Origin: a plasmid
Sequence record: NZ_CP090008.1
Direction: 5' to 3' (one strand)
Length of the DNA stretch: 64,000 nucleotides
Made by a program: the position numbers and the translations under genes. Shown here piece by piece: positions 30,201 to 47,899 of the stretch. The notes beneath the pieces are model-generated. The model had not been told where the DNA came from, searched no databases, and saw nothing but the letters and a program-made list of their open reading frames with translations. Position 1 is the first letter of the stretch. Each line of letters starts with the position of its first letter.

Positions 30201-30228
30201 ATAACATATAGGTAAATCTCTGATCAAG

Positions 30229-30262: not shown

Positions 30263-30269
30263 TTTGTAC

Positions 30270-30597
30270 AATCTCTTTTAAATTATATTATTTGATTTTA
30301 ATAGAAGTTAATTAATGTCCTAAAAAAAATCTTGTCCAATTCCACATAATTGCTACCTCTTTTATTCTCTTATTTTTTATGGTGTTATTGTATCAAAACT
30401 AAATGTTTTAACCCTTTTTTGTCGTTATCGAACAATAATTTATCAGAATCGGTAAAAATAAAACTTAGATAAGCAAAAAGTGATTAATTTAAGACCTCTT
30501 GTGATAATTGTAAAAATGATGCTGTGGTTGAAATATAATAGTCGTGTCAGTTAGGGAAACTAATAAGTGACCCGAATAGAATGAAAGGAGTAATAAG
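30270..30597 (+). promoter_or_regulatory. Promoter/leader region of the precursor-peptide array (duplicated at 33800-34134).
   Basis: About 330 bp is nearly identical to 33800-34134. A candidate -10 tataat lies at about 30535 preceded by TG. The RBS AAAGGAG lies 8 nt before the TTG start. Confidence 0.45.
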
Positions 30598-30756
30598 TTG
30601 AAAAACGAAAAAAATTTGCTCGAAGAGCTTGAAATTGACATTTTGGAGTTGGACGATGTAGAAGGTATTCCAGCAACAGCTGCATCAAGTGGTAGCGGTG
30701 GTAGTAGTACGTGTGGGTCAACCTCATGTTCATCATGTTCATCAAGTTGTGCTTAA
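30598..30756 (+). CDS. RiPP precursor peptide copy 1 (TTG start; KNEKN variant).
   Basis: (M)KNEKNLLEELEIDILELDDVEGIPATAASSGSGGSSTCGSTSCSSCSSSCA. An acidic helical leader is followed by a Ser/Thr/Cys-rich core. Confidence 0.75.
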   Translation: MKNEKNLLEELEIDILELDDVEGIPATAASSGSGGSSTCGSTSCSSCSSSCA

Positions 30757-30806
30757 GGCATAGTGCAATCATCTCGTTAAAAAAAGAAAGGAACATAAAA
30801 TAAAGA

Positions 30807-30965
30807 ATGAAAGATGAAAAAAATTTGCTCGAAGAGCTTGAAATCGACATTTTGGAGTTGGACGATGTAGAAGGTATTCCAGCAACAGCTGCATCAAGTG
30901 GTAGCGGTGGTAGTAGTACGTGTGGGTCAACCTCATGTTCATCATGTTCATCAAGTTGTGCTTAA
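30807..30965 (+). CDS. RiPP precursor peptide copy 2.
   Basis: MKDEKNLLEELEIDILELDDVEGIPATAASSGSGGSSTCGSTSCSSCSSSCA (52 aa). Confidence 0.8.
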   Translation: MKDEKNLLEELEIDILELDDVEGIPATAASSGSGGSSTCGSTSCSSCSSSCA

Positions 30966-31015
30966 GGCATAGTGCAATCATCTCGTTAAAAAAAGAAAGG
31001 AACATAAAATAAAGA

Positions 31016-31174
31016 ATGAAAGATGAAAAAAATTTGCTCGAAGAGCTTGAAATCGACATTTTGAAGTTGGACGATGTAGAAGGTATTCCAGCAACAGCTG
31101 CATCAAGTGGTAGCGGTGGTAGTAGTACGTGTGGGTCAACCTCATGTTCATCATGTTCATCAAGTTGTGCTTAA
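31016..31174 (+). CDS. RiPP precursor peptide copy 3 (leader E17K variant).
   Basis: Same as copy 2 except ttgaagttg (ILKL) for ttggagttg (ILEL). Confidence 0.8.
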   Translation: MKDEKNLLEELEIDILKLDDVEGIPATAASSGSGGSSTCGSTSCSSCSSSCA

Positions 31175-31224
31175 GGCATAGTGCAATCATCTCGTTAAAA
31201 AAAGAAAGGAACATAAAATAAAGA

Positions 31225-31383
31225 ATGAAAGATGAAAAAAATTTGCTCGAAGAGCTTGAAATCGACATTTTGGAGTTGGACGATGTAGAAGGTATTCCAG
31301 CAACAGCTGCATCAAGTGGTAGCGGTGGTAGTAGTACGTGTGGGTCAACCTCATGTTCATCATGTTCATCAAGTTGTGCTTAA
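31225..31383 (+). CDS. RiPP precursor peptide copy 4.
   Basis: Identical 209-bp unit. Confidence 0.8.
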   Translation: MKDEKNLLEELEIDILELDDVEGIPATAASSGSGGSSTCGSTSCSSCSSSCA

Positions 31384-31433
31384 GGCATAGTGCAATCATC
31401 TCGTTAAAAAAAGAAAGGAACATAAAATAAAGA

Positions 31434-31592
31434 ATGAAAGATGAAAAAAATTTGCTCGAAGAGCTTGAAATCGACATTTTGGAGTTGGACGATGTAGAAG
31501 GTATTCCAGCAACAGCTGCATCAAGTGGTAGCGGTGGTAGTAGTACGTGTGGGTCAACCTCATGTTCATCATGTTCATCAAGTTGTGCTTAA
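31434..31592 (+). CDS. RiPP precursor peptide copy 5.
   Basis: Identical 209-bp unit. Confidence 0.8.
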   Translation: MKDEKNLLEELEIDILELDDVEGIPATAASSGSGGSSTCGSTSCSSCSSSCA

Positions 31593-31642
31593 GGCATAGT
31601 GCAATCATCTCGTTAAAAAAAGAAAGGAACATAAAATAAAGA

Positions 31643-31801
31643 ATGAAAGATGAAAAAAATTTGCTCGAAGAGCTTGAAATCGACATTTTGGAGTTGGACG
31701 ATGTAGAAGGTATTCCAGCAACAGCTGCATCAAGTGGTAGCGGTGGTAGTAGTACGTGTGGGTCAACCTCATGTTCATCATGTTCATCAAGTTGTGCTTA
31801 A
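31643..31801 (+). CDS. RiPP precursor peptide copy 6.
   Basis: Identical 209-bp unit. Confidence 0.8.
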   Translation: MKDEKNLLEELEIDILELDDVEGIPATAASSGSGGSSTCGSTSCSSCSSSCA

Positions 31802-31851
31802 GGCATAGTGCAATCATCTCGTTAAAAAAAGAAAGGAACATAAAATAAAGA

Positions 31852-32010
31852 ATGAAAGATGAAAAAAATTTGCTCGAAGAGCTTGAAATCGACATTTTGG
31901 AGTTGGACGATGTAGAAGGTATTCCAGCAACAGCTGCATCAAGTGGTAGCGGTGGTAGTAGTACGTGTGGGTCAACCTCATGTTCATCATGTTCATCAAG
32001 TTGTGCTTAA
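31852..32010 (+). CDS. RiPP precursor peptide copy 7.
   Basis: Identical 209-bp unit. Confidence 0.8.
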   Translation: MKDEKNLLEELEIDILELDDVEGIPATAASSGSGGSSTCGSTSCSSCSSSCA

Positions 32011-32060
32011 GGCATAGTGCAATCATCTCGTTAAAAAAAGAAAGGAACATAAAATAAAGA

Positions 32061-32219
32061 ATGAAAGATGAAAAAAATTTGCTCGAAGAGCTTGAAATCG
32101 ACATTTTGGAGTTGGACGATGTAGAAGGTATTCCAGCAACAGCTGCATCAAGTGGTAGCGGTGGTAGTAGTACGTGTGGGTCAACCTCATGTTCATCATG
32201 TTCATCAAGTTGTGCTTAA
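32061..32219 (+). CDS. RiPP precursor peptide copy 8.
   Basis: Identical 209-bp unit. Confidence 0.8.
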   Translation: MKDEKNLLEELEIDILELDDVEGIPATAASSGSGGSSTCGSTSCSSCSSSCA

Positions 32220-32269
32220 GGCATAGTGCAATCATCTCGTTAAAAAAAGAAAGGAACATAAAATAAAGA

Positions 32270-32428
32270 ATGAAAGATGAAAAAAATTTGCTCGAAGAGC
32301 TTGAAATCGACATTTTGGAGTTGGACGATGTAGAAGGTATTCCAGCAACAGCTGCATCAAGTGGTAGCGGTGGTAGTAGTACGTGTGGGTCAACCTCATG
32401 TTCATCATGTTCATCAAGTTGTGCTTAA
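32270..32428 (+). CDS. RiPP precursor peptide copy 9.
   Basis: Identical unit. It is followed by terminator-like hairpin ggacttagt...accaagtcc + TTTT at 32498-32540. Confidence 0.8.
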   Translation: MKDEKNLLEELEIDILELDDVEGIPATAASSGSGGSSTCGSTSCSSCSSSCA

Positions 32429-32497
32429 GGCATAGTGCAATCATCTCGTTAAAAAAGAAAGGAACATAAAATAAAAAAGGAAACAAGAGAAATAAGT

Positions 32498-32540
32498 AAA
32501 GGACTTAGTTCTGTATTTTACAGGACCAAGTCCTTTTAGT
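32498..32540 (+). terminator. Terminator after the precursor array.
   Basis: Imperfect 9-bp inverted repeat with a T-run. Confidence 0.45.
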
Positions 32541-32559
32541 TTTACCTTGATTCGTTAAT

Positions 32560-33790
32560 AAGAAAAATGGTCTAGCTTGTTCCAATTTACTTATTCGACT
32601 TAAATCTCTTTTCGGAATCGTTAAACATCTCAGACTTAAAGATGCCGAATAAGGTTTCCATCATACTATTATCTATACTATTTCTCTGTAATATTTTGTT
32701 CTAGCATAACTATCACTTGTAACAAGTTCGATGACGTAGAAAGATTATAGGTAATAATTTCGCTATTAACGTTATCTAAAATTAGCGACAAATAGAGTTT
32801 TTAGCTGTTTACTGGAATGGCAAATTCTGTCACATCTGAGTAGCATTCTTTTCATTGATTTTTGATGTTTCAAATAGGTGATGATTAAGATTCTATGCTT
32901 TCTTGCGAACCTATCTTTGGTAGGAATAATACTTCCGTTTACGACGTATTCTAGCGATTAAGCCAAGAACTTTCATCAAACGTTGGATCTTTTTATGATT
33001 TATCACAAAGCCATGTTTTCCCAATTTAAGAGTCATTCGACGATAACCATAATTTCCTTTATGCTCATAATAAATTGTCTGAATTTCGTCTTTAAACTAT
33101 TTCTCTTTGTCAAGCCCCTCCAGTTGCTTCAACTGATAGTAGTAAGTTGAGCGAGGTAAACGAGCCGTTTCAAGAAGCAAATCTAGTCGAAATCCTCCTG
33201 AAGCCATTTCTCTAATTGTCTCTGCTTTTCTCGCTGTAAGGCTTCGTCCCTGTCTTCTAGCTCTTTTAACTTTTTTAGGTAAGCCACCTCGGTACGTAAG
33301 CGTTCATTCTCCTCTTGGAGTCGCTCTAGTTCTGTCATTTCTTCCCAAGATTTCTTATGTTTACGTCCCATTTTAGGTGCTCCCCCTCTTGTTTTCTCAA
33401 CAATAGTATACCCATTTTTCTTGTATTGTGCTGTCCAATTTGTCAATAGCGAAGGATTCGGTAGAGCATAATCTAAAGATACACTTTTTCGTGAACGACC
33501 TTCAAGTAGGACTTTATCAATCATTTCTTGTTTTAGTTCTGGAGAATAGTAACAATTCTTACCTTTCTTGACAATTTCTACTCCGTAACGATCAATTAAT
33601 TTCACCATGTACTTTAGACCAGAAACATCCACATCAAATTTTTTTGAAAGCTGTTTGAAGCTTTGTCCTTGTTTTCTTAGTTCATAAATCTGAACTTTAT
33701 CGTCATAACTCAATTTCATAATAAAACACCCCAAAAGTTAGATTTTTTCTGTCTAACTTTTGGGGTGCAGTTCATCAGTGTATTAGGAGT
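32560..33790 (-). mobile_element. IS3-family element remnant (orfA intact, orfB region degraded).
   Basis: orfA lies at 33183..33734. The terminal inverted-repeat hairpin caccccaaaagttaga...tctaacttttggggtg lies at 33737-33778. The orfB-homologous segment 32560-33180 has no long ORF. Confidence 0.6.
33183..33734 (-). CDS. IS3-family transposase OrfA (HTH + leucine zipper).
   Basis: [40 protein letters not shown]... has an HTH and a C-terminal coiled coil, typical of IS3 OrfA. Confidence 0.7.
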
Positions 33791-34134
33791 CATTAATTTT
33801 TAACAATTTCTTTTAAGTTATATTATTTGATTTTAATAGAAGTTGATTAATGTCCTAAAAAAAATCTTGTCCAATTCCACATAATTGCTACCTCTTTTTA
33901 TTCTCTTATTTTTTATGGTGTTATTGTATCAAAACTAAATGTTTTAACCCTTTTTTGTCGTTATCGAACAATAATTTATCAGAATCGGTAAAAATAAAAC
34001 TTAGATAAGCAAAAAGTGATTAATTTAAGACCTCTTGTGATAATTGTAAAAATGATGCTGTGGTTGAAGTATAATAATCGTGTCAGTTAGGAGAGCTAAT
34101 AAATGACCCCAGATAGAATGAAAGGAGTAATAAG

Positions 34135-34271
34135 TTGAAGATCGAAAAAATTTACAAGAAGAGTTTGAAATCGACATTTTGGAGTTAGATGATATAGAAG
34201 GAATTCCATTAACAGATGTATCAAGTGGTAATTATTACGTATGGAATAACCTTATGCTCATCAAGTTTTGA
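34135..34271 (+). pseudogene. Divergent 10th precursor-like gene, out of frame by 1 nt in an A-homopolymer.
   Basis: It follows a duplicate of the array promoter. It begins TTGAAGATCGAAAAAA and has one fewer A than the array copies. With the frame restored it reads (M)KIEKNLQEEFEIDILELDDIEGIPLTDVSSGNYYVWNNLMLIKF. The leader is conserved and the C-terminal region is different and Cys-free. Confidence 0.5.
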
Positions 34272-34377
34272 AAAAAATAGGAAGATGGACGTGCGATAGA
34301 TAAACAGAAATATATATAATGTTCTTTAATTTTGAACAATTATATTTGTTTTCATAGTCATAGAGGAATAAGAACAG

Positions 34378-35154
34378 ATGAGAAATTTAAAATATGTCAT
34401 CCAAGAGGACAGTATGCTGCTATCATATTTTGGAAAAAGATGTAGGATTGCTTTACCTAAAAAGCTATCTAAGGATGAAGTTCTACAACTAGTTATTTCA
34501 AATATAAATGAAATTTTTGGATTAAAGCAAGAGTTTTCAAAATCACTCACCATGTTTAAGATTGGGGAACAAATCTTTCGACTTCCCAAGGAAGCCGAAA
34601 CTTCCTTAAAACGCTTTTTCCCAGCTATAAGATTACTTTCTGAGGAAGAAGAGTCTTTACTGAGACAAAATTTGCAGTTTCTAGGAAATTTGAAAGGAAC
34701 GTTCTACCTTAAAACAGATGGAAAGCAAATGATTCATCAATTAGAAGAAGGAATTTCTATTTATCACGTGCTGGACCAAGCAGACACTATATTTAAAACA
34801 CCAACTATTAATCGTCTTCTAGATATTAATATTTTGAAAAATATATATTTTGAGAGTTTAATAGACTCATTTGATATCATCAATCGTCAAGGAACATGTC
34901 ACTTAGAAATTTTTACTAATGAAAAAGAAAAATATAGTTTTGATGATACCAACATGGAGGATCTTGTTTTTAAAGCAGTCAAAAAAATAATGGAGTCTAA
35001 ACTAAGTTATAGATACGTAGGCATAGGGAGAAATAGAGGCGAATGCCTTGAGGATTATTTGATGAAACATGGTGCCTCTAGTACTCCTATATTTTGTCAA
35101 GATAGTTTATCGAAATTCTTGGGTCTTGTACTTGCTAAGAAGGAGAATCTATGA
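34378..35154 (+). CDS. Hypothetical protein, first gene of the RiPP biosynthetic operon.
   Basis: 258 aa. It is translationally coupled (ATGA) to the YcaO gene. Confidence 0.4.
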   Translation: MRNLKYVIQEDSMLLSYFGKRCRIALPKKLSKDEVLQLVISNINEIFGLKQEFSKSLTMFKIGEQIFRLPKEAETSLKRFFPAIRLLSEEEESLLRQNLQFLGNLKGTFYLKTDGKQMIHQLEEGISIYHVLDQADTIFKTPTINRLLDINILKNIYFESLIDSFDIINRQGTCHLEIFTNEKEKYSFDDTNMEDLVFKAVKKIMESKLSYRYVGIGRNRGECLEDYLMKHGASSTPIFCQDSLSKFLGLVLAKKENL

Positions 35155-36881
35155 ATATTCAGCAATACGTAAAAGTAATACTGTCAAAATCTTGTGAAAC
35201 ACAGCCAATAGAGCTAGTCTACCAAGGGATGAGGTTATATTTTGGAGAACTGGATTATTTTTACTCAAACAGAGTAGAAGAAGGGATAATCATTTTCTGG
35301 GATGAAGACAAACTGATTGTAAGTCCCGTATTTCATAAGAAAGAAAAAAATTGTAGCATCTGTTTCTTAGAACATCGGAGGAAATTTAAAATAGATGATT
35401 CTATTGGAAGAGATGGCGACACGATTGAAATAGAGGATAACAATTTATTTGAAGAAAAATTTCTTTACGTAATATCTAACCTGATACAGGTCAAATCGCA
35501 GCCTCCTTTATTTGATTATTTTATAATTGAGGATTGGAAAATTTCAAAGTGTCAATTCTTTCGAATTGCTAATTGTGACACCTGTATTTCTAATAGAGAA
35601 AGTGTAGAAGAGATCTTGGCTACAGGAAATAGTCGTTGCCAGGCATCCTCTTTGAGAGAAAAGTTGGGAGATTATTCTGCTTATATTCAATTGGGTAATT
35701 CTGATACTGGGATTTTCAATAGAGAGTTAACAACTCTACTAGATAATGGTGTAACGGTTGAACTACAATACTCACTTTCTAATAATGAGATTATTTCGGG
35801 AATTGGTATTGATAAAAGCTATAAAAGAGCAAAAGCTAAGGCATTTCTAGAAGCGATGGAACGTTATAGTGGCATTACCTCCAAGGGGCAGAAACGATAT
35901 TGGTTCTCCATAGAAGACTTGAGAGGGAAGTCAATCGATTTCCTAAATCCTAACGATTATTTTCTTGAACTTGAGAAAGAAGAGGTGGCTAGTACGAATA
36001 AATTTTTCTGGTTGCCAGCTTACAATTACCAAAGTAATGACTATGCTTTAATACCTGAAGATTTTATCATTTATAAAACAGAGAGAACTCCTGAAAGTAA
36101 AAAATTAATGAATATGAGTTCAAATGGACATGCAATTGGAAATAGCTATAAAGAAGCGGTTATTTTTTCACTTTTTGAAATGTACGAACGAGATCATTTT
36201 CTTGTTCATTGGTACGAGAAACAGCCACCTCAAGAAATAAATCAAGATAGCATTCTAGATGAAGATATTCACCATTATTTAAGTATGATTAAAAACTTAG
36301 GGTATGAGGTCTCGATTTATCAAATGCTTTCTAGCAAGGTGATAAGCATTTATTGGACCATCGCTAGAGGAAAAAATGGTAGCAAGTTTGCGACTTATTC
36401 AACAGCAGGTGCTCATCTTTTTGGAAAGACGGCAATTATTTCTGCATTAAAAGAGCTATATTTTGCACTTTATATTTATGATGAAGACGTCGAACATATT
36501 AAAGAAAATGGGCGACAAATGCAAGCTCAAGATGTTAAAACTGTGGCAGATCATGCAATTTATTATTCAATTGAGGATAGAAGTATACAGTTTAATTTTT
36601 TGAAAGGTGTAGAGGTTATCGATTTTGAAATAAAAGATGACTACTCTATCGAGTTAGATTCCTACTATTCAGATCTATTGGAGTTTACGAATAAGCTATT
36701 TGGGAATTTTTATATCGTAGATAATACCCCAAAAGGTTTGAAGGAAATTGGGTTATGCGAGGTGAAAGTGTTTGTTCCTGGTATGCAAGATATGAATTTT
36801 GGTTATGCAAATCAGTACATCAATCACCAGCGGATTCATCTGGACGGTAATCAGGAAGTACCAATTCACCCCTTCCCATAA
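35151..36881 (+). CDS. YcaO-domain cyclodehydratase (azoline-forming) with N-terminal Cys-rich/E1-like or RRE-type extension.
   Basis: YcaO signature MSSNGHAIGNSYKEAVIFSLFEMYERDH and the C-terminal proline-rich end ...VPIHPFP. Confidence 0.75.
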   Translation: MNIQQYVKVILSKSCETQPIELVYQGMRLYFGELDYFYSNRVEEGIIIFWDEDKLIVSPVFHKKEKNCSICFLEHRRKFKIDDSIGRDGDTIEIEDNNLFEEKFLYVISNLIQVKSQPPLFDYFIIEDWKISKCQFFRIANCDTCISNRESVEEILATGNSRCQASSLREKLGDYSAYIQLGNSDTGIFNRELTTLLDNGVTVELQYSLSNNEIISGIGIDKSYKRAKAKAFLEAMERYSGITSKGQKRYWFSIEDLRGKSIDFLNPNDYFLELEKEEVASTNKFFWLPAYNYQSNDYALIPEDFIIYKTERTPESKKLMNMSSNGHAIGNSYKEAVIFSLFEMYERDHFLVHWYEKQPPQEINQDSILDEDIHHYLSMIKNLGYEVSIYQMLSSKVISIYWTIARGKNGSKFATYSTAGAHLFGKTAIISALKELYFALYIYDEDVEHIKENGRQMQAQDVKTVADHAIYYSIEDRSIQFNFLKGVEVIDFEIKDDYSIELDSYYSDLLEFTNKLFGNFYIVDNTPKGLKEIGLCEVKVFVPGMQDMNFGYANQYINHQRIHLDGNQEVPIHPFP

Positions 36882-36906
36882 TCTTATAATTAAAAGAGGA
36901 TAAAAA

Positions 36907-37749
36907 ATGAATTTAATTGAAATTAACAATTTAAGAAAAAACTATGGCGTAAAAGAAGTCTTGAAAGGTTTGGATTTGTCCCTAAAGAATGGTCAAGTTT
37001 ATACATTGCTTGGAAAAAACGGTGCAGGGAAAACAACATTTATCAATATTTTACTTAGACTAATCAAGGAAGATTCTGGTAGCGTAGTCTCAAACGTTAG
37101 CGTAAAAAAAGAAGTTGGTGTAGTCTTTCAGGAAGACTATTTTCCAAAAGAGACAACAGTTTCGGATTTGATAAAGCTACAAGCTTCATTTTTCCATAAG
37201 AAGGTTAATGTTGATGAAGAATTAAAAATAATGGGATTAGAGAAAGAGAAGTTTCAAAAGGTAGGAACACTTTCGGGAGGACAAAAACGGAAACTTTCGT
37301 TCCTATTAGCGACCTTACATGATCCTAAACTTTTGATTTTGGATGAACCTACTGCTGGTATGGATTATGATAGTGTAGAAAAGTTTGTTCAACAGATTAA
37401 AAAATTAAAGGCAAAGGGAAAAACAATTCTCTTAATTACACACGATTTGTACCAAATTGAATCTTTTGCAGATTATATTCTGTTGCTAAATGAAGGTGTA
37501 TTCGAAGAGAAAATCTCAGTAAATGATATGTTTATGGAATCGTTGTATGAATTTCCCAAAGAGATGGTTATGAGTGGAGCTGCGAAGGAGCAATTGTTTT
37601 ATAAGAATGATCAAACTTATGTTTTCAGTAGTCCATACGCACAAAAAATAATTGAACAAAATGGTATTAGGAATCCAGAAAACTTTAAGCGTCATAAACA
37701 AGTAGTAGATATTTTCAAACGTATTTCATTTGTAGAAGGAGATAAATAA
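36907..37749 (+). CDS. ABC transporter ATP-binding protein.
   Basis: Walker A LLGKNGAGKTT. Signature LSGGQKRKLSF. Walker B LLILDEPTAGMD. Confidence 0.85.
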   Translation: MNLIEINNLRKNYGVKEVLKGLDLSLKNGQVYTLLGKNGAGKTTFINILLRLIKEDSGSVVSNVSVKKEVGVVFQEDYFPKETTVSDLIKLQASFFHKKVNVDEELKIMGLEKEKFQKVGTLSGGQKRKLSFLLATLHDPKLLILDEPTAGMDYDSVEKFVQQIKKLKAKGKTILLITHDLYQIESFADYILLLNEGVFEEKISVNDMFMESLYEFPKEMVMSGAAKEQLFYKNDQTYVFSSPYAQKIIEQNGIRNPENFKRHKQVVDIFKRISFVEGDK

Positions 37750-39562: not shown

Positions 39563-42074
39563 AAATGTATATTATAGAAAAACAAATTTTTCGAATGGCG
39601 AATTTTCTAAGTTTTTTCAAAAAGAAATATTTGAAAAAATACGAAATAATCAAAAATATCGCCTCAATTTGTTAAAACAAGTGAGTTCTATTCGAGAATC
39701 GGGAATTGAACAATTAAATCAAGTTATTCAGGAATGTCCGGAAGGTAAAGATAAGAAGCAATTGTTAAAGTTCTCGCATGACTTCTACAATAATAGAGGA
39801 GATTTAGGAAAGAAATTTCAAAAAATAGTATTTCTACTTCCACCAGATTTAGCATCAGAATTTGATTCTTATTTTAAAATGAAAGAACAAATTTTGATGA
39901 TTGATAATAGAATTGAAGAACAGGTAGATCAACAATATTTAAATGAGAAACAAATGATGCTACAGGGACTTCGTGATAATCTAGATTTTGTTCAGAACAC
40001 AAAGATGATTGGGCAGACTCTCTATCAAAAGTTAGAAAAGCTACTCAAAACAGATGTTAAAAATCATAATAAGAAGCAACGGCAAATGGATGGTTTTTTG
40101 TACAATTATTATACTCGTATTGCTACAAAGACAAGTCCCTTGGGGTTATTAGGCACAACAAGTGTTTATGGGCAAGAAGAATTTCATTTAGATAGAGAGA
40201 TTTTTATGTCGGTGAACTCTTCAATCATTTTAAAGATATTTGATAGGCTTTATCAAAACCCAAAAAATCAGCCAGTTTTGAACTTCAAACTAAATGAGAC
40301 ACTAATTTTAAAAGAGAATAAGTATTACGTAACGGTTTTCAATGATATCAAAGGAAAAAGTTTATACCGTAATCGTCAGGAATTGGTTACACTCCCTGAA
40401 AGTAAAATCTTAAATGAGATTTTACAGCTTTTCAAAGGAAAAGGGCAGTTATCGGGACGTGACATCTTAGATAAACTCTCTCAAAAAGGGCAAGAAAATC
40501 TTCTTACAAAATTGTTGGAGAATTGTATTTTACTTCCAGCTGATCAATTAACTATTGAAGGTAAGCAAAGTATGTCAGAAGCGTTTCTGCAGAAATTAAA
40601 GGGTATTTCTTCGGTTATGTTTTCAAATGAAATTGAGATTTTCGAAAGAATAGTTGCATTTGAGCAAGAAGAGTTTTCTTGGGAGATATATGATCGATTG
40701 ACGGAAGAAGTTCATAATCTTGTTCTGTATTATGGCATTGAAGGATTTGACAAATCATCGTATGTTTCGATAGATAAGCTTGCTTCTAATACTGAGAATG
40801 ATTTAGAAAAAGAGGTTCAAGTTGTAAAAGAACAACAGAAGTGTTTCAATGATCTATCAAAATTTATTTCTATTTTTGATATTTCAACACGCAGTAAGTA
40901 TTTAGCCTATGAGATGCTTCGAAAAAAATATGGTGGAGAATTCAAGCCTCGAAACGCTCGAGAAATGAGTAAATTTTTGCGAGATCTATCAACTACGCTT
41001 TTTCAAAGAGATGGCTATTGGATGGAATCATTTGGCTATTTAGGAGAAAAGTACCAGCATAAAATTGATAATCAACTCTTGAAGTTGAAGAAGGAAATTC
41101 TTGAGCAATTGCTTGGTCAAGATTCGGGGGATGGATCAGAACTATTGATTTCAACCGAATTGTTGAATAGTTCAACGAAACAATTAGAGAAACTTGTTGG
41201 ACAAAGCCATAAATCTCGTGCTTATTTTTTACAAGTTAGTCCAAGTAATCAAATAGTCTTTAATCATATTTATAAAGGCTATGGAGTCTACCGTAGACGG
41301 TTTAATCATTATCTTCCAACAGATCAAGAAAGTTATAGATTAGATGGAGCTTTAGTAGATATTCCAATGACATTTGGTTTCAATGCAAATATTCGAGAAA
41401 GTACAGATAAGACCTTATCCTTACCATTAGGTGAACGAGCTTTTGCCAGCTCTGAACAATTGAACTGGTTAGATTTAGGTTTTCGACTTTCAAAACAATC
41501 AAAGGAAATCGAAGTGTTCGAAAAGGCAACGGGTGCTATTATTTATCCACACTTCTTAGGAAGTTTAATAACAGTCGCCCTCCCTTCATTAGTTGCGGTT
41601 TTTAATTCAATTACTCTCAATGATTCTATTTATTTTGATTTTGGAGAATTGTTACTCAGACAGAAAATAAAAAATCATTCTCAGGAAAAAGTAGTGGTCC
41701 CAAGACTTTGCTTTGAAAAAGTTGATTTTATATTATCTCGAAAAAAATGGTATCTTGCTTGTGAAAAATTACATACCATTTTACAGGAAGATACGTCAAT
41801 GGGTCAAAAATGGTTAGAAGTTATCGAGTATTTTGAAGAAGAAGAGTTGCCATTATCTTTCTTTGTAAAAGACTTTTTCGAGTCTTATAATCAGGACTCG
41901 GAGTTACTAAAAACAAAACCACTATACATCAATTTTGAATCTTTTTTAAGCTTTAAAGCATTTGTAGGTTTGGTGAAGAAGAAGGATAGAATTTTAATCG
42001 AAGAGGTCTTGCCAGAATGTACTGATACGGAAACAGATATGATTACAGAGTTAATTGTTGAAACAAATGATTGA
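39543..42074 (+). CDS. Large LanB-like dehydratase, glutamylation-domain type (putative).
   Basis: 843 aa. Its size and its position before two SpaB_C-like genes suggest this. I make no motif-level confirmation. Confidence 0.4.
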   Translation: MSELMVKNVYYRKTNFSNGEFSKFFQKEIFEKIRNNQKYRLNLLKQVSSIRESGIEQLNQVIQECPEGKDKKQLLKFSHDFYNNRGDLGKKFQKIVFLLPPDLASEFDSYFKMKEQILMIDNRIEEQVDQQYLNEKQMMLQGLRDNLDFVQNTKMIGQTLYQKLEKLLKTDVKNHNKKQRQMDGFLYNYYTRIATKTSPLGLLGTTSVYGQEEFHLDREIFMSVNSSIILKIFDRLYQNPKNQPVLNFKLNETLILKENKYYVTVFNDIKGKSLYRNRQELVTLPESKILNEILQLFKGKGQLSGRDILDKLSQKGQENLLTKLLENCILLPADQLTIEGKQSMSEAFLQKLKGISSVMFSNEIEIFERIVAFEQEEFSWEIYDRLTEEVHNLVLYYGIEGFDKSSYVSIDKLASNTENDLEKEVQVVKEQQKCFNDLSKFISIFDISTRSKYLAYEMLRKKYGGEFKPRNAREMSKFLRDLSTTLFQRDGYWMESFGYLGEKYQHKIDNQLLKLKKEILEQLLGQDSGDGSELLISTELLNSSTKQLEKLVGQSHKSRAYFLQVSPSNQIVFNHIYKGYGVYRRRFNHYLPTDQESYRLDGALVDIPMTFGFNANIRESTDKTLSLPLGERAFASSEQLNWLDLGFRLSKQSKEIEVFEKATGAIIYPHFLGSLITVALPSLVAVFNSITLNDSIYFDFGELLLRQKIKNHSQEKVVVPRLCFEKVDFILSRKKWYLACEKLHTILQEDTSMGQKWLEVIEYFEEEELPLSFFVKDFFESYNQDSELLKTKPLYINFESFLSFKAFVGLVKKKDRILIEEVLPECTDTETDMITELIVETND

Positions 42075-43168
42075 GAAAAGAGGAGGAGATTATGGTATAT
42101 AAATTATCTGTATTTATCAATGATTTAGCTTTTTCAAACAGTCTAATCATTAAGATTTATAGTTTTTTAAATAATAAAGCAATTAAAGAAATTTGGGTGA
42201 AGAAATCAATTCAGCGTGGCCACCATCTTGAATTGTTTTCTCTCAATAAAGAGTATTTGAAGACAATGGAAGATTTTATTGTTGGAGAACTGTCAAGTTA
42301 TTCCCCAGTTAATGTTCCTGAAATGAAATTAAAGAAGCAAATCATGAGTGTTGCAGCTGCAGAAAACACGGAGGCTGACTTAAATATTCAACCGGATGGG
42401 ACAATTCTGTTTGAAGAAGTTGAAGAACTATATCAAGATAAAGTTAGGTTAAATTCCTATGAGACTGAGTTGGTTGTGGAAAAGAAAAAGATGGAGTTGA
42501 TTCTCTATCTTGAAAGTATAGGATTCTTCAACGAGCCTGAAAATCAGCAAAATATTTTATTGGTTAAACTATTCTTAAATTTAGGGTTACTTTTTAATAA
42601 CAATTTAAAAATGGGTTATCTATCTATGAAGTCAAATATTCTATTCTTTAACTTACAACTGGAGAAGTTGAAGGGTACAATGTCGCCGGAGAAGTATAAA
42701 CGGTATCATCACTTAGTTAATTTTCTAGATGAGACAGAACAGAGTTATATCAATGAGAATATTGAAATCTTTCTGAATGAAAATAAAAGTTCATTCTATA
42801 AGCAATTTGTAGAAGAACTTTATCAATTTTTTAGTGATGAATTTGAAAAAGGAAACCTTTATTATGAAAACCTAAGTGATGCAGAGAGTTTTGTTCAGAA
42901 ATCACGAAAGAATGGTCAGATAACAGATTTTCACAAAAAATTCTTTACGAATCAAGCTTTTCTTTCCCATCATGCTTCGGAACCCTTTGTGATTTATCGT
43001 TATACAGTTGATGTTCTTTATCAAATTATGCCGTTGTTAAACGTTAATCCGCTTCGAAAACAGAAAATTACAAAAATGGTAAGTGATAAGGTTGAGACAG
43101 GCTATGATATGACCTGGGAAGACAGTTATGCTGACATGCAAGAATTATTTAACAAGAAGGTACAATAA
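42071..43168 (+). CDS. SpaB_C-like domain protein (LanB elimination domain or pyridine synthase candidate).
   Basis: The N-terminal pattern YKLSVFINDL...IKEIWVKKSIQRGHHLELFSL parallels the Lant_dehydr_C signature (W...FIRY..GPHLRLR). Confidence 0.45.
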   Translation: MRKEEEIMVYKLSVFINDLAFSNSLIIKIYSFLNNKAIKEIWVKKSIQRGHHLELFSLNKEYLKTMEDFIVGELSSYSPVNVPEMKLKKQIMSVAAAENTEADLNIQPDGTILFEEVEELYQDKVRLNSYETELVVEKKKMELILYLESIGFFNEPENQQNILLVKLFLNLGLLFNNNLKMGYLSMKSNILFFNLQLEKLKGTMSPEKYKRYHHLVNFLDETEQSYINENIEIFLNENKSSFYKQFVEELYQFFSDEFEKGNLYYENLSDAESFVQKSRKNGQITDFHKKFFTNQAFLSHHASEPFVIYRYTVDVLYQIMPLLNVNPLRKQKITKMVSDKVETGYDMTWEDSYADMQELFNKKVQ

Positions 43169-43696
43169 ATGCATATTTTACTTGAAAATGGAGAAAAATA
43201 TATTTTTGATGGAGTCTACTATAGAAAATTAAATTCAAAGACTAGGCACTTATATTTTCATCAGTTAAAACATAACCATTCCATTTGTTTAGTTAAGAGT
43301 CAGCGTGTGAAGTGTCCGTCTCTTACTTTTGAATTGGTGGATGTGGACAATATTGGTGATCTTCCTGTATTGGATAAAAATGATTGTAAGAAAATAGTTG
43401 AATTCTTTGCCAAAAACATGACAAAAACTTTTGATAAAGTGATGGAAGTTAGTCAAACAATGAATCAGCTTGGATCTCCGACTTTTTCAGATGGTATCGA
43501 CACAACAGTAGGAAAATCAATTGTAAAAGTATTAGCTGCACAGTTATTACGCACCTACTTGAGAGAGCAGGGGTGGATAGTACGAGTAGATTTTGAAAAT
43601 TACCCTAGTAGAAAGGGACAGTTTTTAAAAGTAGATCTCCTCGAAGGCAAAGATATTTATTGTGGGGTAGTAAATGAATACGAACTTAATTACTAA
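43169..43696 (+). CDS. Hypothetical protein in the RiPP operon.
   Basis: 175 aa and translationally coupled. No motif. Confidence 0.35.
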   Translation: MHILLENGEKYIFDGVYYRKLNSKTRHLYFHQLKHNHSICLVKSQRVKCPSLTFELVDVDNIGDLPVLDKNDCKKIVEFFAKNMTKTFDKVMEVSQTMNQLGSPTFSDGIDTTVGKSIVKVLAAQLLRTYLREQGWIVRVDFENYPSRKGQFLKVDLLEGKDIYCGVVNEYELNY

Positions 43697-45353
43697 TGAC
43701 TCTTTTTTTCATAAAAAGTATTTAGAAAGTCTGGAAGAAGGACGTAAATATGCTATTTTGGTAGTAGATCACCTCTTCTTTTTCAAGAAAGAGGAAGGAT
43801 TCCTTGAGGATTTTTTATATACAGTTTCTTTATACAATAGGACTAAAACAAAAAATGTATTAGCTAGCATGTTCTCAACAAATTACCAAAATAGCGAGTT
43901 GGAGATAGAAAAAGCAAAACATCTTATGGACAGGCTAGTCTTTAAAAAGGGACAGATAGGAGTACTGTATCTAGAAAATCAAGCCCTCTCCTATGTTTGT
44001 ATTAAGAAAAAAAGAACATCTCAAACCAAAAGTAAAATGGAGCTTGGGACTTTATTAGATAAGGTCACTATTGGTGAATCGGATGGCTTTCGAGAAAAAA
44101 CTGTGAGTGAACTGTCAAAATATGCACAAGGTTTTTTAGACAAAACGGTAGCCTATCGTAAATTTTTCGATTTAGATTCAGATTATTTTCCAGGAGTGGG
44201 CATTGAATATGCTGTAACAGACAAATATACAGAATGTGGTTATGGTCGTTCTGCATCTTTTCATGATTCTACTAATATTGCTCTCCTAGAAGCGATTGAA
44301 AGATATTCCTCCCTTTTTTACCCCTATCAAAATAAAGATATTTATGCTAAGTTCTCAGACTTGGACAATGCTATTCACCCCAAGAATTTCATTCTCCCAT
44401 CTTCTGAAAAAAATCCTTTTATGCAGTACCATGATAATTTGGAGATTTATTGGACAGAGGCGGAATCTCTGAGAGATAAGAAAACAGTACTAGTGCCTGA
44501 ACAATTAGCAGTATATGGAGATTCTTTCTTTAGAGATAAAAAGAAACAGCATCGATTCATATATGATAGTTCAAATGGTGTTTCTTTAGGAGGATCATTT
44601 GAGGAAGCTGTATTATATGGACTATTGGAGTTAATTGAGAGGGATAATTTTTTAATGACATGGTATGGTAGGATTCCAATCAATGAAGTTAGACTGGAAT
44701 CTCTGGGCTTGTCTGAAGATACTTTAAATACAGTTCATCGTGCTCAACGAGACGGTTTTGATGTCAAAGTTTACGATATTTCAATGGAGTTAGGAGTTCC
44801 TTCTTTTTGGGCCTTAGTAAGAAGTTTGAAAGGGCATAAAATGTATTCTTATACAGCTGCAGGGAGCAACCCAATCCCTCATAAAGCAGCGGAGTCAGCA
44901 TTGCTAGAAGCTCTGGTTGGAATTAAAATCCATGATAATATAAACGCTGAATTTGGGACAACGGTTCCGACTGAGGTTATTGAGATGGAGGATCACGTCA
45001 ACTATTATTCAAGTGATCAGCATAAAGGTGCCTATGATTTTCTGCAAGATTCCCATGTAACTGACTTATCGACAGAAAATTACATTAAAGCCTTTAATAC
45101 GAAGACTTATTTGAAAAAACTAATTAATAAAGTATTAAAAGAATATGAAGATATCTATGTCGTTAATTTAACTTCAAAAGAAATGGAGAAACTAGGAATC
45201 TATACTGTGAAAGTTATTGTTCCAGGACTTCTTCCAATGACTTTTGGTGTACAAAATGAAAGAATATCTGAACCTCGTATCAATAGAGAAAGGAGTAGGA
45301 GAGGTCTTGAGGAAGTGAAACAGATTAGTTGCTATCCTCACCCTTTCCCTTAA
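43674..45353 (+). CDS. Second YcaO-domain protein.
   Basis: YDSSNGVSLGGSFEEAVLYGLLELIERDNF and the C-terminal CYPHPFP. Confidence 0.75.
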   Translation: MNTNLITNDSFFHKKYLESLEEGRKYAILVVDHLFFFKKEEGFLEDFLYTVSLYNRTKTKNVLASMFSTNYQNSELEIEKAKHLMDRLVFKKGQIGVLYLENQALSYVCIKKKRTSQTKSKMELGTLLDKVTIGESDGFREKTVSELSKYAQGFLDKTVAYRKFFDLDSDYFPGVGIEYAVTDKYTECGYGRSASFHDSTNIALLEAIERYSSLFYPYQNKDIYAKFSDLDNAIHPKNFILPSSEKNPFMQYHDNLEIYWTEAESLRDKKTVLVPEQLAVYGDSFFRDKKKQHRFIYDSSNGVSLGGSFEEAVLYGLLELIERDNFLMTWYGRIPINEVRLESLGLSEDTLNTVHRAQRDGFDVKVYDISMELGVPSFWALVRSLKGHKMYSYTAAGSNPIPHKAAESALLEALVGIKIHDNINAEFGTTVPTEVIEMEDHVNYYSSDQHKGAYDFLQDSHVTDLSTENYIKAFNTKTYLKKLINKVLKEYEDIYVVNLTSKEMEKLGIYTVKVIVPGLLPMTFGVQNERISEPRINRERSRRGLEEVKQISCYPHPFP

Positions 45354-45359
45354 TATAAT

Positions 45360-46268
45360 ATGAAAGAAACTGACAAATGGTTGTCCTACCATATCTTTTG
45401 CCATAATCTTCTTCATCATGACCGTATCATTTGTAAGTTAAATAAATGGACCTCTGAGAAACATCTTTACCCTTATTTCTTCATTCGCTACTGGGAAGGG
45501 GGGCCTCATATCCGTTTTAGGATAAAGAGGAAAGATACCATTCGGGATGACTATTACAATACTCTCGTTGACCTCTTAGAATCGGAATTATCTGATGAGA
45601 GTATCATTCTGACAAAAGAAGAGTATTATCAAGGTCATAAGTTAGATGGAGAGAAAATTCCTATTGAGGAATTGCCTTGGTATGAGAATAACACTATTGT
45701 CCCGATTACCTATGTTCGAGAGAATGAGAGGTACGGGGGAAAAGAAGCAATTGAGCATGCGGAATATGTTTTTTACCGCTCTAGTCAATTAGTCTCAACT
45801 ATGTTAGAAGGTTGTATGAACTGCCACATGATGATTCGGATGCTATTTTATGTCCATATTTATGAGAAAGTAAATGCAGCAATTAAAGAGTGTGGTATAA
45901 ACTTTGATTTCCCCCAATTCTATGCCAATTGTTTCTCGTATTGGAATGAACTTTATGACTTGAAAGATGCAGAATATATAAGAGACATTGCTAATGCTAT
46001 CAAACACTCATTTGAGGACAAAGAAGAAAAAATAAATACTGTCTTTTCATTTATTCAGCCACAAATTCAGAACAATTTTATTGACTCTTTAGTAGAGTAT
46101 TTAAAAAATGTTTCTCAATTAAAGGGAAACAAGATGATGCGTTCTGTCCTGTTTTCTCAAATGCATATGTTCGCGAACCGTCTCGGAATTCCGATTGAAT
46201 ATGAATGTGCCATATACAGTTATTATAACCAGAAAAATACAAATTTAACTTGCCAGAAGGGAGCATAA
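45360..46268 (+). CDS. SpaB_C (Lant_dehydr_C) domain protein; thiopeptide-type [4+2] cyclase or eliminase candidate.
   Basis: WLSYHIFCH...LYPYFFIRYWEGGPHIRFRIK matches the FIRY..GPHLRLR signature. Confidence 0.6.
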   Translation: MKETDKWLSYHIFCHNLLHHDRIICKLNKWTSEKHLYPYFFIRYWEGGPHIRFRIKRKDTIRDDYYNTLVDLLESELSDESIILTKEEYYQGHKLDGEKIPIEELPWYENNTIVPITYVRENERYGGKEAIEHAEYVFYRSSQLVSTMLEGCMNCHMMIRMLFYVHIYEKVNAAIKECGINFDFPQFYANCFSYWNELYDLKDAEYIRDIANAIKHSFEDKEEKINTVFSFIQPQIQNNFIDSLVEYLKNVSQLKGNKMMRSVLFSQMHMFANRLGIPIEYECAIYSYYNQKNTNLTCQKGA

Positions 46269-47081
46269 ATGAAAAAAGTACTGCTTAATGAAGAAATGTA
46301 TTATACGCCTAACTTTGATTATGATCAATTAAAGAATCGTAGAAAGAAGTTTGCAACCAATCGTATCAATTGGTTTATGAACAATAGTCCTAAACAAGAC
46401 TATCAATTTCCTAAAGACAACCCAACAGATTTTGATTCCAACAAACAGTATAGTTACTATCAAGAAAATAATGCAGATGATCCGATTCGAAAATTATTTG
46501 AAAATCGACGCTCAACGCTTTTAAATTCTTTTGATGGGAAATGGAGTCGTGAAGAACTATTTAATTTATTGACAATAGCTGTTGGACCCAATCCACGAAA
46601 AAGATTTTATCATGGAGAGGAATTAATTTTAAGAAACTATCCATCTGGTGGAGCTTTGTTTCCAGTAAAACTTTATCTTTTTATCAAGGATGTGGAAGGT
46701 ATGGAACCGGGTGTTTACTATATTAGTTCTCAGTTGAAAAAATTGATTAAAGTTGAAAGCAAGGAAAATCTGGTCTGGGACAATCTCTTTCCAATGACTC
46801 TTTACAAATTAGACGCATTGAGCAATTCAACAGAAAAAATTAGTTTTGCTGTATTCATGGTTGTTGATTTTAAGGAATCTTTTAAAAAATATGGAGAACT
46901 TTCCGAACGTTTAGCTTTCTTTGAGGCTGGACATGTTGCCCAAAATCTTCAGTTGGTTTCGAGTCATCTCAACAAAAAATCACTACCCATTTGTGGTCTC
47001 TTTCCAGAAGAAGTTGAAAAACAAATTAATATCCAGAACAACGATAGCCAATATTGTGTTTACGGTATCCTATTTGGATAA
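46269..47081 (+). CDS. SagB-type FMN-dependent dehydrogenase (azoline to azole).
   Basis: LRNYPSGGALFPVKLYLFIKDVEGMEPGVYYIS matches the SagB-type dehydrogenase domain signature. Confidence 0.7.
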   Translation: MKKVLLNEEMYYTPNFDYDQLKNRRKKFATNRINWFMNNSPKQDYQFPKDNPTDFDSNKQYSYYQENNADDPIRKLFENRRSTLLNSFDGKWSREELFNLLTIAVGPNPRKRFYHGEELILRNYPSGGALFPVKLYLFIKDVEGMEPGVYYISSQLKKLIKVESKENLVWDNLFPMTLYKLDALSNSTEKISFAVFMVVDFKESFKKYGELSERLAFFEAGHVAQNLQLVSSHLNKKSLPICGLFPEEVEKQINIQNNDSQYCVYGILFG

Positions 47082-47098
47082 AAGCAAGGAGAATTGTT

Positions 47099-47845
47099 AT
47101 GCTAATAAATCCATTCCTAACAGTTGAAAATCATAACGGTGTTTATTATTTTTCTGAAAAATACGGTAAAACAAAAAAGCCTTTTCTAACTTTACAATCA
47201 AAAAGAGAACTGGCTGATTTGATAAATGATAGAGAGCTAAATAAAAAAATTAGTAAGCATCTTAATTATTCATTTGCAATTCCAGAACATCATAAGGAAC
47301 TTTTTTCTATATTGGAAGAAAATGTAGCGTTTTGCTCTGAGCTTGTTAACAAAACAATGCTTGCTAAGTTCTTAATGTACAGATTACATTCTGCGACAAT
47401 TGAATTCTACAATTACAGTGATTTGAATTTGCAGCATTTAAAAAAGATGTTAGAGTTGGAAAATGGGACTGAGAGTCGAGTACAAGTTGTTATCTATGAC
47501 AAAAACAGTCATATTCAGGACTTCCAGCCTACATATAATCAAGGATTGCTTCTATTTTTTGAAGTATGTGGTGGAAAATTACGTGGGATAGGTCCTTTTG
47601 TAGAAGTATCAGCAGATGGCACTAAAATGAGCCATTTTCAGGAAGAGAAAAACGTAGAGAGAAAAGTCGAGAAAGAAGATAGTTACTGGAATCGATCAAT
47701 TGAGGAAGTTGTCTTAGATACAGTACTTTCAGCTATTACAGATTATTTTTCAGATTATATTACTGTCTCTTCACCTTTTATGTACCGTAGAGCTATCTTG
47801 AATGAAGATACAGTTTGTCTTTGTGAAGCATTTTCTCGTCAATGA
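47099..47845 (+). CDS. Hypothetical protein, possible ocin-ThiF-like/E1-like leader-binding partner of YcaO.
   Basis: The RBS AAGGAG precedes ATG at 47099. Its size and position are typical for TOMM docking proteins. I have no motif proof. Confidence 0.35.
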   Translation: MLINPFLTVENHNGVYYFSEKYGKTKKPFLTLQSKRELADLINDRELNKKISKHLNYSFAIPEHHKELFSILEENVAFCSELVNKTMLAKFLMYRLHSATIEFYNYSDLNLQHLKKMLELENGTESRVQVVIYDKNSHIQDFQPTYNQGLLLFFEVCGGKLRGIGPFVEVSADGTKMSHFQEEKNVERKVEKEDSYWNRSIEEVVLDTVLSAITDYFSDYITVSSPFMYRRAILNEDTVCLCEAFSRQ

Positions 47846-47899
47846 GTTTCTTAAGACAAGATTTATAAATTGTTTGGACTGAGGGTTTTCTCGGTTCTT

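Follow-up and report, generated by a model that had tools for sequence, protein, structure and literature searches.

The best described thiopeptide gene clusters, against which the locus analysed here can be set, belong to a few types. The thiocillin/micrococcin (Tcl) clusters occur in low-GC Firmicute hosts (Bacillus cereus, Macrococcus and Staphylococcus), those for micrococcin being plasmid-borne, and encode YcaO, dehydrogenase, split LanB and pyridine synthase as separate proteins; the thiocillin cluster has four precursor genes. The laz cluster of Streptomyces lactacystinaeus, responsible for lactazole A, has its dehydrogenase and elimination domains fused in LazF. With a single cyclodehydratase pair, it encodes five enzymes altogether (PMC7210931). 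The thiomuracin and GE2270 clusters specify actinobacterial 29-membered thiopeptides with SCNC-type cores. The locus considered here lies on a 64,000-nucleotide stretch of the plasmid record NZ_CP090008.1 (hereafter the window), in which a cargo island carries a tandem array of precursor genes, a biosynthetic operon and a two-component system. We regard it as very probable that this region is a functional-looking cluster for a thiopeptide (a pyridine-containing thiazolyl peptide), known here from its genes.

The operon consists of 12 open reading frames (ORFs) on the same strand (34378-47845), all intact, with stops and starts that overlap or abut. Protein families were called with Pfam and NCBIfam/TIGR models, and structures were searched in the Protein Data Bank (PDB). 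The hallmarks of thiopeptide clusters were all found: a precursor of the Thiopep_pre family, YcaO, SagB, both parts of a split LanB, and a protein with the fold and family of pyridine synthases. A plain linear azole peptide of the TOMM (thiazole/oxazole-modified microcin) class is rejected on gene content, given the split LanB together with the pyridine-synthase homologue. A class I lanthipeptide is also rejected, as none of the 12 operon proteins has a LANC_like match and LanB is split. A sequence-only reading of the same DNA had already proposed nine precursor genes upstream of a coupled operon, and a thiopeptide rather than a linear azole peptide or a lanthipeptide; the first proposal is confirmed by nine 52-aa and twelve operon ORFs, and the second is supported by the ORF7 model and relatives and by the precursor family. 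Failure of the LanB/SpaB_C, YcaO or SagB assignments had been named as grounds for dropping the class. In the model searches the class stands, because the family placement of ORF7, ORF10 and the Thiopep_pre precursor all hold.

What sets thiopeptide clusters apart from those for linear azole peptides or lanthipeptides is a dedicated [4+2] pyridine synthase accompanying YcaO, a dehydrogenase and a split LanB. The candidate for this enzyme, ORF7 (365 aa from a TTG start, 358 aa from an ATG at 42092), does not match any Pfam model, including the SpaB_C-type (Lant_dehydr_C) one, and matches NCBIfam NF045556 (TbtD_PbtD_pyrid) weakly (E = 8e-6). Its single sequence found no relative in the PDB and its profile reached PbtD only at E = 1.1; these searches being uninformative, structure comparison was used. 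Twelve clusters of homologous proteins were collected and an AlphaFold model was obtained (pLDDT 88.6, pTM 0.87). The 12 best PDB matches of this model found by Foldseek are all PbtD, TbtD or a [4+2] aza-cyclase (8EJZ/8EJY), with E = 1.3e-8 to 8.8e-6 and TM of 0.57-0.76, while LanB dehydratases match only at E >= 1e-3. Searched against 1.84 billion representative proteins, the ORF7 profile found only 69 relatives at E < 1e-3, and all ten sampled distant relatives match NF045556 alone, over its full length (E = 1e-10 to 1.6e-73). Since the best model matches and the profile relatives point to the PbtD/TbtD type, ORF7 is predicted by fold and family to be a remote member of the pyridine synthases, with a putative catalytic role. 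ORF7 had initially been taken as one of two SpaB_C domain proteins. That description suits ORF10 and has to be replaced for ORF7 by that of a pyridine synthase, recognised by structure and transitive homology.

Of the split LanB, the elimination protein is the clearer part. ORF10 exceeds the cut-offs of PF14028 Lant_dehydr_C (123.8 bits) and TIGR03891 (thiopep_ocin; 85.9 bits against 48.45); its single sequence found no relative in the PDB, and with a profile the top PDB match falls in MibB's elimination region (E = 0.0025), with TbtD only at 0.74. For the 843-aa ORF6, previously described as a large LanB-like protein, the evidence is mixed: its score against PF04738 Lant_dehydr_N (26.8 bits) is slightly below the gathering score of 28, and its only PDB match is TbtB (6EC7; E = 1.7e-4 with the single sequence, 1.9e-4 with a seven-sequence profile). 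Its homologue is called lantibiotic dehydratase by PGAP, and the homologue in the Streptococcus hyointestinalis locus (L010) has an unmarked precomputed PF04738 match (E <= 1e-5). These matches, although weak, point to a split-LanB glutamylation protein. TbtB for ORF6 and PbtD/TbtD for ORF7 are the only solved structures matched by these two proteins, at about 15% identity.

The two YcaO cyclodehydratases and the SagB dehydrogenase of the initial description were both recovered. Both YcaOs match PF02624 (147.8 bits for YcaO-1, 222.9 bits for YcaO-2), and YcaO-2 also passes TIGR03604 (SagD; 246.3 bits, above the 219.25 cut-off), under which YcaO-1 falls (166 bits, cut-off 219). The PxPxP terminus is typical for azoline-forming YcaOs; in all seven clusters compared, YcaO-2 ends in such a motif (YPHPFP) and YcaO-1 in a near-match (..PIHPFP). 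The N-terminus of YcaO-1 (35151-35810) contains two CxxC motifs 74 residues apart, present in all streptococcal versions and absent from staphylococcal ones, which may form the zinc site of an E1-like remnant domain. ORF11 is above the cut-off of TIGR03605 (92 bits, cut-off 78.4). The M20 peptidase and the exporter that had also been proposed correspond to ORF5 and to the pair ORF3/ORF4, all three with Pfam matches. Export and/or self-protection is proposed as the role of the ORF3 ATPase, and C-terminal or residual-leader trimming as that of ORF5. ORF1, ORF8 and ORF12 have no Pfam, NCBIfam or PDB match in sequence searches made with single sequences and seven-sequence profiles, and profile-profile comparison found them mutually unrelated. 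ORF12 resembles E1/LynD-type proteins by fold alone and may be a leader-binding cyclodehydratase partner. ORF1 and ORF8 each lie immediately 5' of a YcaO gene, with which they are translationally coupled; this position leads us to guess at substrate binding or YcaO partnering.

The substrate is encoded by a 209-bp unit repeated 9.0 times (30599-32483; 99% matches, score 3721 in Tandem Repeats Finder), each unit containing one 52-codon ORF, MKDEKNLLEELEIDILELDDVEGIPATAASSGSGGSSTCGSTSCSSCSSSCA. All nine copies are intact in the window. Copies 2 and 4-8 are identical nucleotide for nucleotide, copy 1 has a TTG start and N3, and copy 3 has E16K. The precursor passes Pfam PF19409 Thiopep_pre (46.9 bits, gathering score 23.5). 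It is made up of a leader, M..LEELEIDILELDDVEGIPATAASSGSGGS, and a core, STCGSTSCSSCSSSCA, whose start is placed at S1 because residue -1 varies among clusters (S, H, Y, F, R) and the 16 residues that follow are constant; the boundary drawn in the sequence-only reading is therefore retained. The core reads S1-T2-C3-G4-S5-T6-S7-C8-S9-S10-C11-S12-S13-S14-C15-A16, with T or S at position 6 among clusters, and 14 of its 16 residues are Ser, Thr or Cys (4 Cys, 8 Ser). One variant core is known, STCAACSCSSCSSSCA (P0017). The array of Streptococcus salivarius DB-B5 has one frameshifted copy and another with an in-frame deletion. S. thermophilus records (P0018, P0020), and also P0022, contain truncated or frameshifted precursor genes named thiazolylpeptide-type bacteriocin, so that this dairy species may have a degenerate version of the locus.

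Compared with the Tcl clusters, the window cluster shares a host among the low-GC Firmicutes, the possession of several identical tandem precursor genes, the encoding of YcaO, dehydrogenase, split LanB and pyridine synthase as separate proteins, and a small partner protein before YcaO. It differs in having nine precursor copies, an additional YcaO, an M20 peptidase, and ORF1 and ORF8, for which homologues could not be detected, and in lacking C-terminal decarboxylase or reductase genes. Its core is unrelated to the Tcl core SCTTCVCTCSCCTT: it has Thr2 instead of Cys2, only 4 Cys, and 8 Ser, and does not follow the pattern of the 26-membered thiocillin/micrococcin type (Ser1-Cys2, and a second pyridine Ser flanked by Cys as Cys9-Ser10-Cys11), reading Ser9-Ser10-Cys11.

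The core starts with Ser and ends with C-S-S-S-C-A, so that its terminal Ser-Ser-Ser-Cys-Ala equals Ser10-Ser11-Ser12-Cys13-Ala14 of lactazole, a resemblance in sequence only. In both, residue 2 is not Cys and Ser-derived oxazole chemistry is plausible. In lactazole these four Ser/Cys residues are indispensable for macrocyclisation and Ala14 is important for efficient maturation (PMC7210931). Unlike the window core, that of lactazole contains few residues open to modification. The window cluster also departs from the minimal laz-type set, having two YcaOs, separate ORF10 and ORF11, and the extra M20 peptidase, ORF1 and ORF8, the enzymes being set against Laz by description only.

Outside the family, the nearest annotated plasmid relative is a thiopeptide cluster of Lactobacillus johnsonii (CP016630.1, L009), which is likewise carried on plasmids and comes from a lactic acid bacterium associated with hosts (human and pig isolates). 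It shares the ...TAASSGS... junction of the precursor and has LanB-N, YcaO, SpaB_C and dehydrogenase homologues. Protein identity is 23-29%, there are one YcaO and a single precursor gene, the M20 and ATP-binding cassette (ABC) matches are not above chance, and the core region is SCNSCSCCASTSCCSVHIHL. It resembles the lactocillin cluster of L. gasseri.

The cluster belongs to a wider family. In seven divergent clusters from Streptococcus and Staphylococcus-plasmid contigs, the order of the 12 genes is identical and the core is conserved at 15-16 of 16 residues, while identity falls to 58% for the leader and to 23-48% for the enzymes. This constancy of the core amid divergent enzymes speaks for selection acting on an actual product. 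GC content is 24% in the most divergent clusters, and the contig that was checked (L012) is flanked by Staphylococcus-plasmid-like sequence. The exact 843-aa protein occurs in 1209 blocks of a public assembly collection. A scan of species-representative genomes found one further locus only, in Streptococcus sp. UMB0029. The staphylococcal clusters also contain a conserved 47-aa hydrophobic ORF divergent from the precursor (L012 1959-2102, L013 1348-1491 and L014 1947-2090; minus strand), possibly for an immunity peptide, of which the window showed no equivalent.

Upstream of the operon lies a second copy of the array promoter followed by a precursor relic (33797-34270), both absent from the earlier description. 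The relic has lost 1 nt and, in addition, an internal stretch. Relatives of the cluster, that of S. hyointestinalis among them, have one to three precursor genes immediately 5' of ORF1 and no intervening insertion sequence (IS), which gives promoter, precursor and operon as the ancestral layout. The S. salivarius arrangement arose from it by copying and amplification of the promoter-precursor unit, followed by decay of its proximal copy. The locus can be modelled as two transcription units: P1 would direct transcription of the nine precursor genes up to a strong terminator, and P2 that of the relic and the twelve coupled genes. Such separate units would yield a large excess of substrate over enzymes. 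The terminator after the array is well supported by folding (132-nt segment, z = -3.9; none of 200 shuffles folds equally well). A conserved hairpin in the 5' untranslated region, suggested by the promoter alignment, was rejected as not significant (z = -1.55, one 5'-truncated segment being folded), and an Rfam scan of the window found no RNA family. On the contig L003 (4090-4840), the left flank of P1 is fused directly to the P2 relic; its array was either lost by recombination between two promoter copies or collapsed in assembly.

Regulation of both units probably depends on the LytTR response regulator and the kinase encoded next to the operon. A 9-12-9 direct-repeat geometry characterises LytTR boxes, and a candidate box of this kind, GTGATTAAT-N12-GTGATAATT, is found about 25 bp upstream of TATAAT in both promoter copies (30480-30509 in P1, with TATAAT at 30534-30539; 34016-34045 in P2). 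In S. hyointestinalis the two repeats of the box are retained and the spacer has diverged, and its assignment as a candidate is based on this cross-species conservation and on position. A LytTR response regulator adjoins the cluster in three other loci too (L010, L011 and L017). The adjacent regulator and kinase would probably switch on both promoters through the 9-12-9 box. Between the operon and the two-component system, a 124-aa ORF on the minus strand (48353-48727) has no family match; ORFs of 95-158 aa occupy the equivalent position in other loci.

Table. Coordinates of the island, its regulatory and mobile sequences and the genes of the cluster in the window
Feature	Position	Strand	Basis or detail
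Cargo island, 21 kb (array, operon, two-component system)	30087..51122		Breaks in backbone homology
IS3-related relic, left edge of island	30091..30191		79% identical over 101 bp to 33147-33247
Promoter region P1 of array, 336 bp	30262..30597	+	Duplicated before operon
Precursor array, nine tandem genes of 159 nt, period 209	30598..32428	+	ORFs and Tandem Repeats Finder
Intrinsic terminator after array	32498..32546	+	Long hairpin then T-run
Truncated IS3-family element	32698..33774	-	Intact orfA 33183-33734; broken orfB pieces 32911-33207
Promoter copy P2 before operon	33797..34135	+	90% identical to P1 (over 33797-34138)
Decayed precursor gene (frameshift, Cys codons lost)	34136..34270	+	77% identical to array units
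ORF1, 258 aa, conserved, coupled to YcaO-1	34378..35154	+	Kept in all seven syntenic clusters compared
ORF2, YcaO-1, 576 aa, divergent azoline-type, N-terminal extension of about 220 aa	35151..36881	+	PF02624
ORF3, DrrA-like ABC transporter ATPase	36907..37749	+	PF00005, 98 bits
ORF4, ABC-2 type permease	37749..38468	+	PF01061, 28.9 bits
ORF5, M20 family metallopeptidase	38468..39562	+	PF01546, 75.7 bits; kept in every cluster of the family
ORF6, putative split-LanB glutamylation protein, TbtB/TclK-like, 843 aa	39543..42074	+	PF04738, PDB 6EC7
ORF7, [4+2] pyridine synthase candidate	42071..43168	+	AlphaFold model, Foldseek, NF045556
ORF8, 175 aa, conserved across the family, coupled to YcaO-2	43169..43696	+	Conservation only
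ORF9, YcaO-2, 559 aa, SagD-type cyclodehydratase	43674..45353	+	PF02624, TIGR03604
ORF10, split-LanB elimination domain, TclL/TbtC-like, 302 aa	45360..46268	+	PF14028, TIGR03891
ORF11, SagB/McbC-type FMN (flavin mononucleotide) dehydrogenase (azoline to azole)	46269..47081	+	PF00881, 36.3 bits; TIGR03605
ORF12, 248 aa (263 aa from TTG at 47054), E1/ThiF-like partner candidate	47099..47845	+	Fold
IS3 end fragment downstream of operon	48214..48297		88% identical to 33691-33774
LytTR-family response regulator	48858..49589	+	PF04397, 76.4 bits; PF00072
GHKL histidine kinase, multi-pass membrane, AgrC/ComD type	49626..50939	+	PF14501, 66.7 bits

The carrier is an S. salivarius Rep3/ParA megaplasmid. 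The window backbone encodes ParA (12023), a Rep3 initiator (14065), PcfJ/PcfK, a T2SSE ATPase, a Replic_Relax protein, Ssb, ERF and McrBC. This backbone matches S. salivarius megaplasmids (rep_cluster_199: pIKMIN-B501, ICDC2) at 91-97% identity to the left and right of the island, and pIKMIN-B501 of strain DB-B5 aligns with 93% of the region at 96% identity. The limits of the island are given by the S. salivarius ICDC2 plasmid NZ_CP018188.1, with which backbone homology ends at 30086 and resumes at 51123, and which has about 660 bp at the island site. The megaplasmids MN480762/3, CP015284 and CP020429 have the flanks in common and lack the island, and the S. salivarius megaplasmids (K12, M18, ICDC2 and others) with the same Rep3/ParA backbone (91-95% identical on either side) do not have any match to the thiopeptide operon. 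The island probably lies in a variable bacteriocin region of the megaplasmid. The same cluster is also present on a 2.25-Mb replicon (L004).

The view of the cluster as cargo on a conjugative element, bracketed by IS3 fragments and placed between a coupling-protein gene and ssb, can be kept only in part. The island, absent from syntenic megaplasmids, does qualify as cargo, and ssb is confirmed at 57504-57986. However, a conjugative element with a coupling protein is rejected as unsupported: the match of the 1012-aa protein (20826-23864) to the P-loop family TrwB_AAD_bind is below threshold (E = 0.032, 13.6 bits against 20.5), the only recognisable transfer-type genes are those of PcfJ, PcfK, the T2SSE ATPase and the Replic_Relax protein, and these megaplasmids are typed as non-mobilizable by MOB-suite (PLSDB). 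S. salivarius megaplasmids are reported to bear lantibiotic loci and to be transferable (PMC3681767). IS3 fragments are found at the left edge of the island, in its interior and, on the right, some 2.8 kb short of the edge. The interior element is 86-87% identical to annotated IS3 transposases of streptococcal plasmids and has an HTH_Tnp_1 match.

Other mobile or repeated sequences are present in the window. A split IS110 lies in the backbone (27579-28746; one ORF with DEDD_Tnp_IS110, the other with Transposase_20), flanked by a thioredoxin/TraF-like gene and a gene for a 211-aa protein; it is absent at this site in L001-L003, and L004 has an intact IS110 between array and operon. Next to the replication gene, an IS200-like Y1 transposase (15591-16244) is followed by a tyrosine recombinase (16482-17465). 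Both the rep/par region and the island lie between the arms of a 598-bp inverted repeat (87% identical; 10364-10958 and 56965-57553), of which one is upstream of a DUF3854 gene (9021-10361, minus strand) and the other overlaps the start of ssb. Offset direct repeats (11331-11813 and 13656-13880) just upstream of the ParA and Rep3 genes are probably centromere-like repeats and iterons. A McrBC-type restriction pair (AAA_5 and McrBC, 180 bits) is found at 54321-56915 of the window and at 36868-38169 of L008; the name 3-isopropylmalate dehydrogenase given to the McrC-like gene in the DB-B5 RefSeq record is probably a misannotation.

Taken together, biosynthesis can be viewed as follows, on a scheme inferred, including the order of steps and the targets of each YcaO, from the characterised thiomuracin, thiocillin and lactazole pathways. 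The E1-like ORF12, possibly with ORF1 and ORF8, would bind the acidic leader, and the two YcaO enzymes would act by cyclodehydration on all four core Cys and probably on part of the Ser/Thr, after which the SagB dehydrogenase would convert azolines to azoles. The 843-aa protein would then glutamylate the remaining Ser/Thr via Glu-tRNA, and ORF10 would eliminate glutamate to give dehydroalanine (Dha) and dehydrobutyrine (Dhb). ORF7 would couple Dha1 and a downstream Dha by [4+2] cycloaddition, forming the pyridine macrocycle and expelling the leader. The M20 peptidase would trim one end and the ABC pair would export the product and/or protect the producer. The product presumably has antibiotic activity. 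Two ring closures fit the oxazole-Dha-thiazole recognition pattern, Ser1-Ser10 (26-membered, with a Dha-rich tail) and Ser1-Ser14 (38-membered); used in the lactazole fashion, SSSCA would give the 38-membered ring in the window product against a 32-membered one in lactazole. Natural thiopeptide rings have 26-35 members (PMC7210931). A mass formula checked on lactazole A (701.203 calculated, 701.20 published) predicts [M+H]+ of 1089-1286 over plausible modification states, with 1160.20 for the fully processed product that keeps Ala16 and 1089.16 for the one that loses it.

Several observations weigh against the thiopeptide interpretation or parts of it. Identity between ORF7 and the solved pyridine synthases is only about 15%, and its NCBIfam score (25 bits) is far under the equivalog cut-off of 325. 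A conserved M20 peptidase is unexpected in the pathway, because pyridine synthases themselves take the leader off. Residue 2 of the core is Thr, where thiocillin-type cores have Cys, which puts it outside that template. An IS3 remnant stands between array and operon, and the metagenome contig L003 has the cluster without the precursor array. The count of LytTR boxes is not above chance in shuffles, and the box is present twice only through promoter duplication. Lastly, the core sequence was found in no searchable paper.

The low score of ORF7 and the conserved peptidase, which a thiopeptide pathway does not strictly need, would be accounted for if the product were a goadsporin-like linear azole/dehydroalanine peptide, with ORF7 as a non-catalytic or leader-binding SpaB_C fold and the M20 enzyme removing the leader. 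This seems very improbable: the fold of ORF7 is nearer to pyridine synthases (E = 1e-8 to 9e-6) than to LanB elimination domains, its relatives grade continuously into TbtD/PbtD-type proteins, a bona fide separate elimination protein (ORF10) is already there, the precursor belongs to Thiopep_pre, and M20 enzymes are mostly exopeptidases or amidohydrolases rather than leader endopeptidases. It is also unlikely that the window locus is a silent or decaying remnant. IS3 and IS110 insertions in and around it, the frameshifted relic, the damaged copies in the DB-B5 array and the S. thermophilus records with truncated precursors only would agree with decay, but in the window the 12 enzyme ORFs and nine precursor copies are intact, the operon retained its own promoter copy after the IS3 insertion, and identical protein copies recur in 1209 collection blocks.

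Two further proposals accept that a thiopeptide is made. It could act as a signal or have another ecological role rather than being primarily an antibiotic, like the antibacterially inactive lactazole A. We consider this fairly unlikely. The SSSCA end essential in lactazole, the non-Cys residue 2, the linked LytTR/histidine protein kinase system of quorum-sensing type and the lack of an extra L11 or EF-Tu resistance gene among the 12 genes would suit such a role. On the other hand, the island probably lies in a region in which other S. salivarius megaplasmids are reported to encode lantibiotics, the DrrA-type ABC pair, typical of self-protection, is conserved, and both the core, with its 14 modifiable residues and its Cys spacing, and the enzymes, with two YcaOs and separate dehydrogenase and elimination proteins, are unlike those of lactazole. 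A rather speculative extension would be a new scaffold rich in Ser-derived oxazoles and Dha, closed through SSSCA into a 38-membered Ser1-Ser14 ring larger than any natural one, made with recruited ORF1/ORF8 and M20 trimming under LytTR quorum control; if true, the invariant core in Streptococcus megaplasmids and Staphylococcus plasmids would mean one conserved target in human oral and skin communities.

The thiopeptide cluster is not new to annotation, and the novelty implied by the sequence-only reading was overstated. RefSeq (PGAP, DB-B5) names the precursor homologues thiazolylpeptide-type bacteriocin, the DB-B5 operon names include thiopeptide-type bacteriocin biosynthesis protein and SagB/ThcOx family dehydrogenase, and the presence of the locus on pIKMIN-B501 was reported in a genome announcement of 2020. 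In the literature searched, which did not cover the human-microbiome survey of Donia et al. 2014, neither the core or leader string nor the compound is described, and searches on thiopeptides of S. salivarius or Staphylococcus turned up no characterisation. The cluster adds to the thiopeptide class a chemically uncharacterised member that automatic annotation already flags. It does not overturn current understanding and represents a well-defined target for isolation, not a surprise.

Its family is widespread in human-associated cocci, with an unusual, highly conserved core and several conserved proteins that have no family match in the searches made here. As the core (Thr2, eight Ser, terminal SSSCA) falls outside the thiocillin, GE2270 and berninamycin templates, ring size and target cannot be read from it, and the product would provide another example from lactazole-like sequence space, which has been little explored. 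ORF1, ORF8, ORF12 and the M20 peptidase are candidate new parts of thiopeptide maturation. The near-invariance of the core across Streptococcus and Staphylococcus plasmids indicates a product that is under strong constraint and shared horizontally. Among the commensals of the human mouth S. salivarius is a dominant one, also sold as a probiotic, and, given the number of collection blocks with the exact dehydratase, this thiopeptide could be among the commoner antibiotics made in the human mouth.

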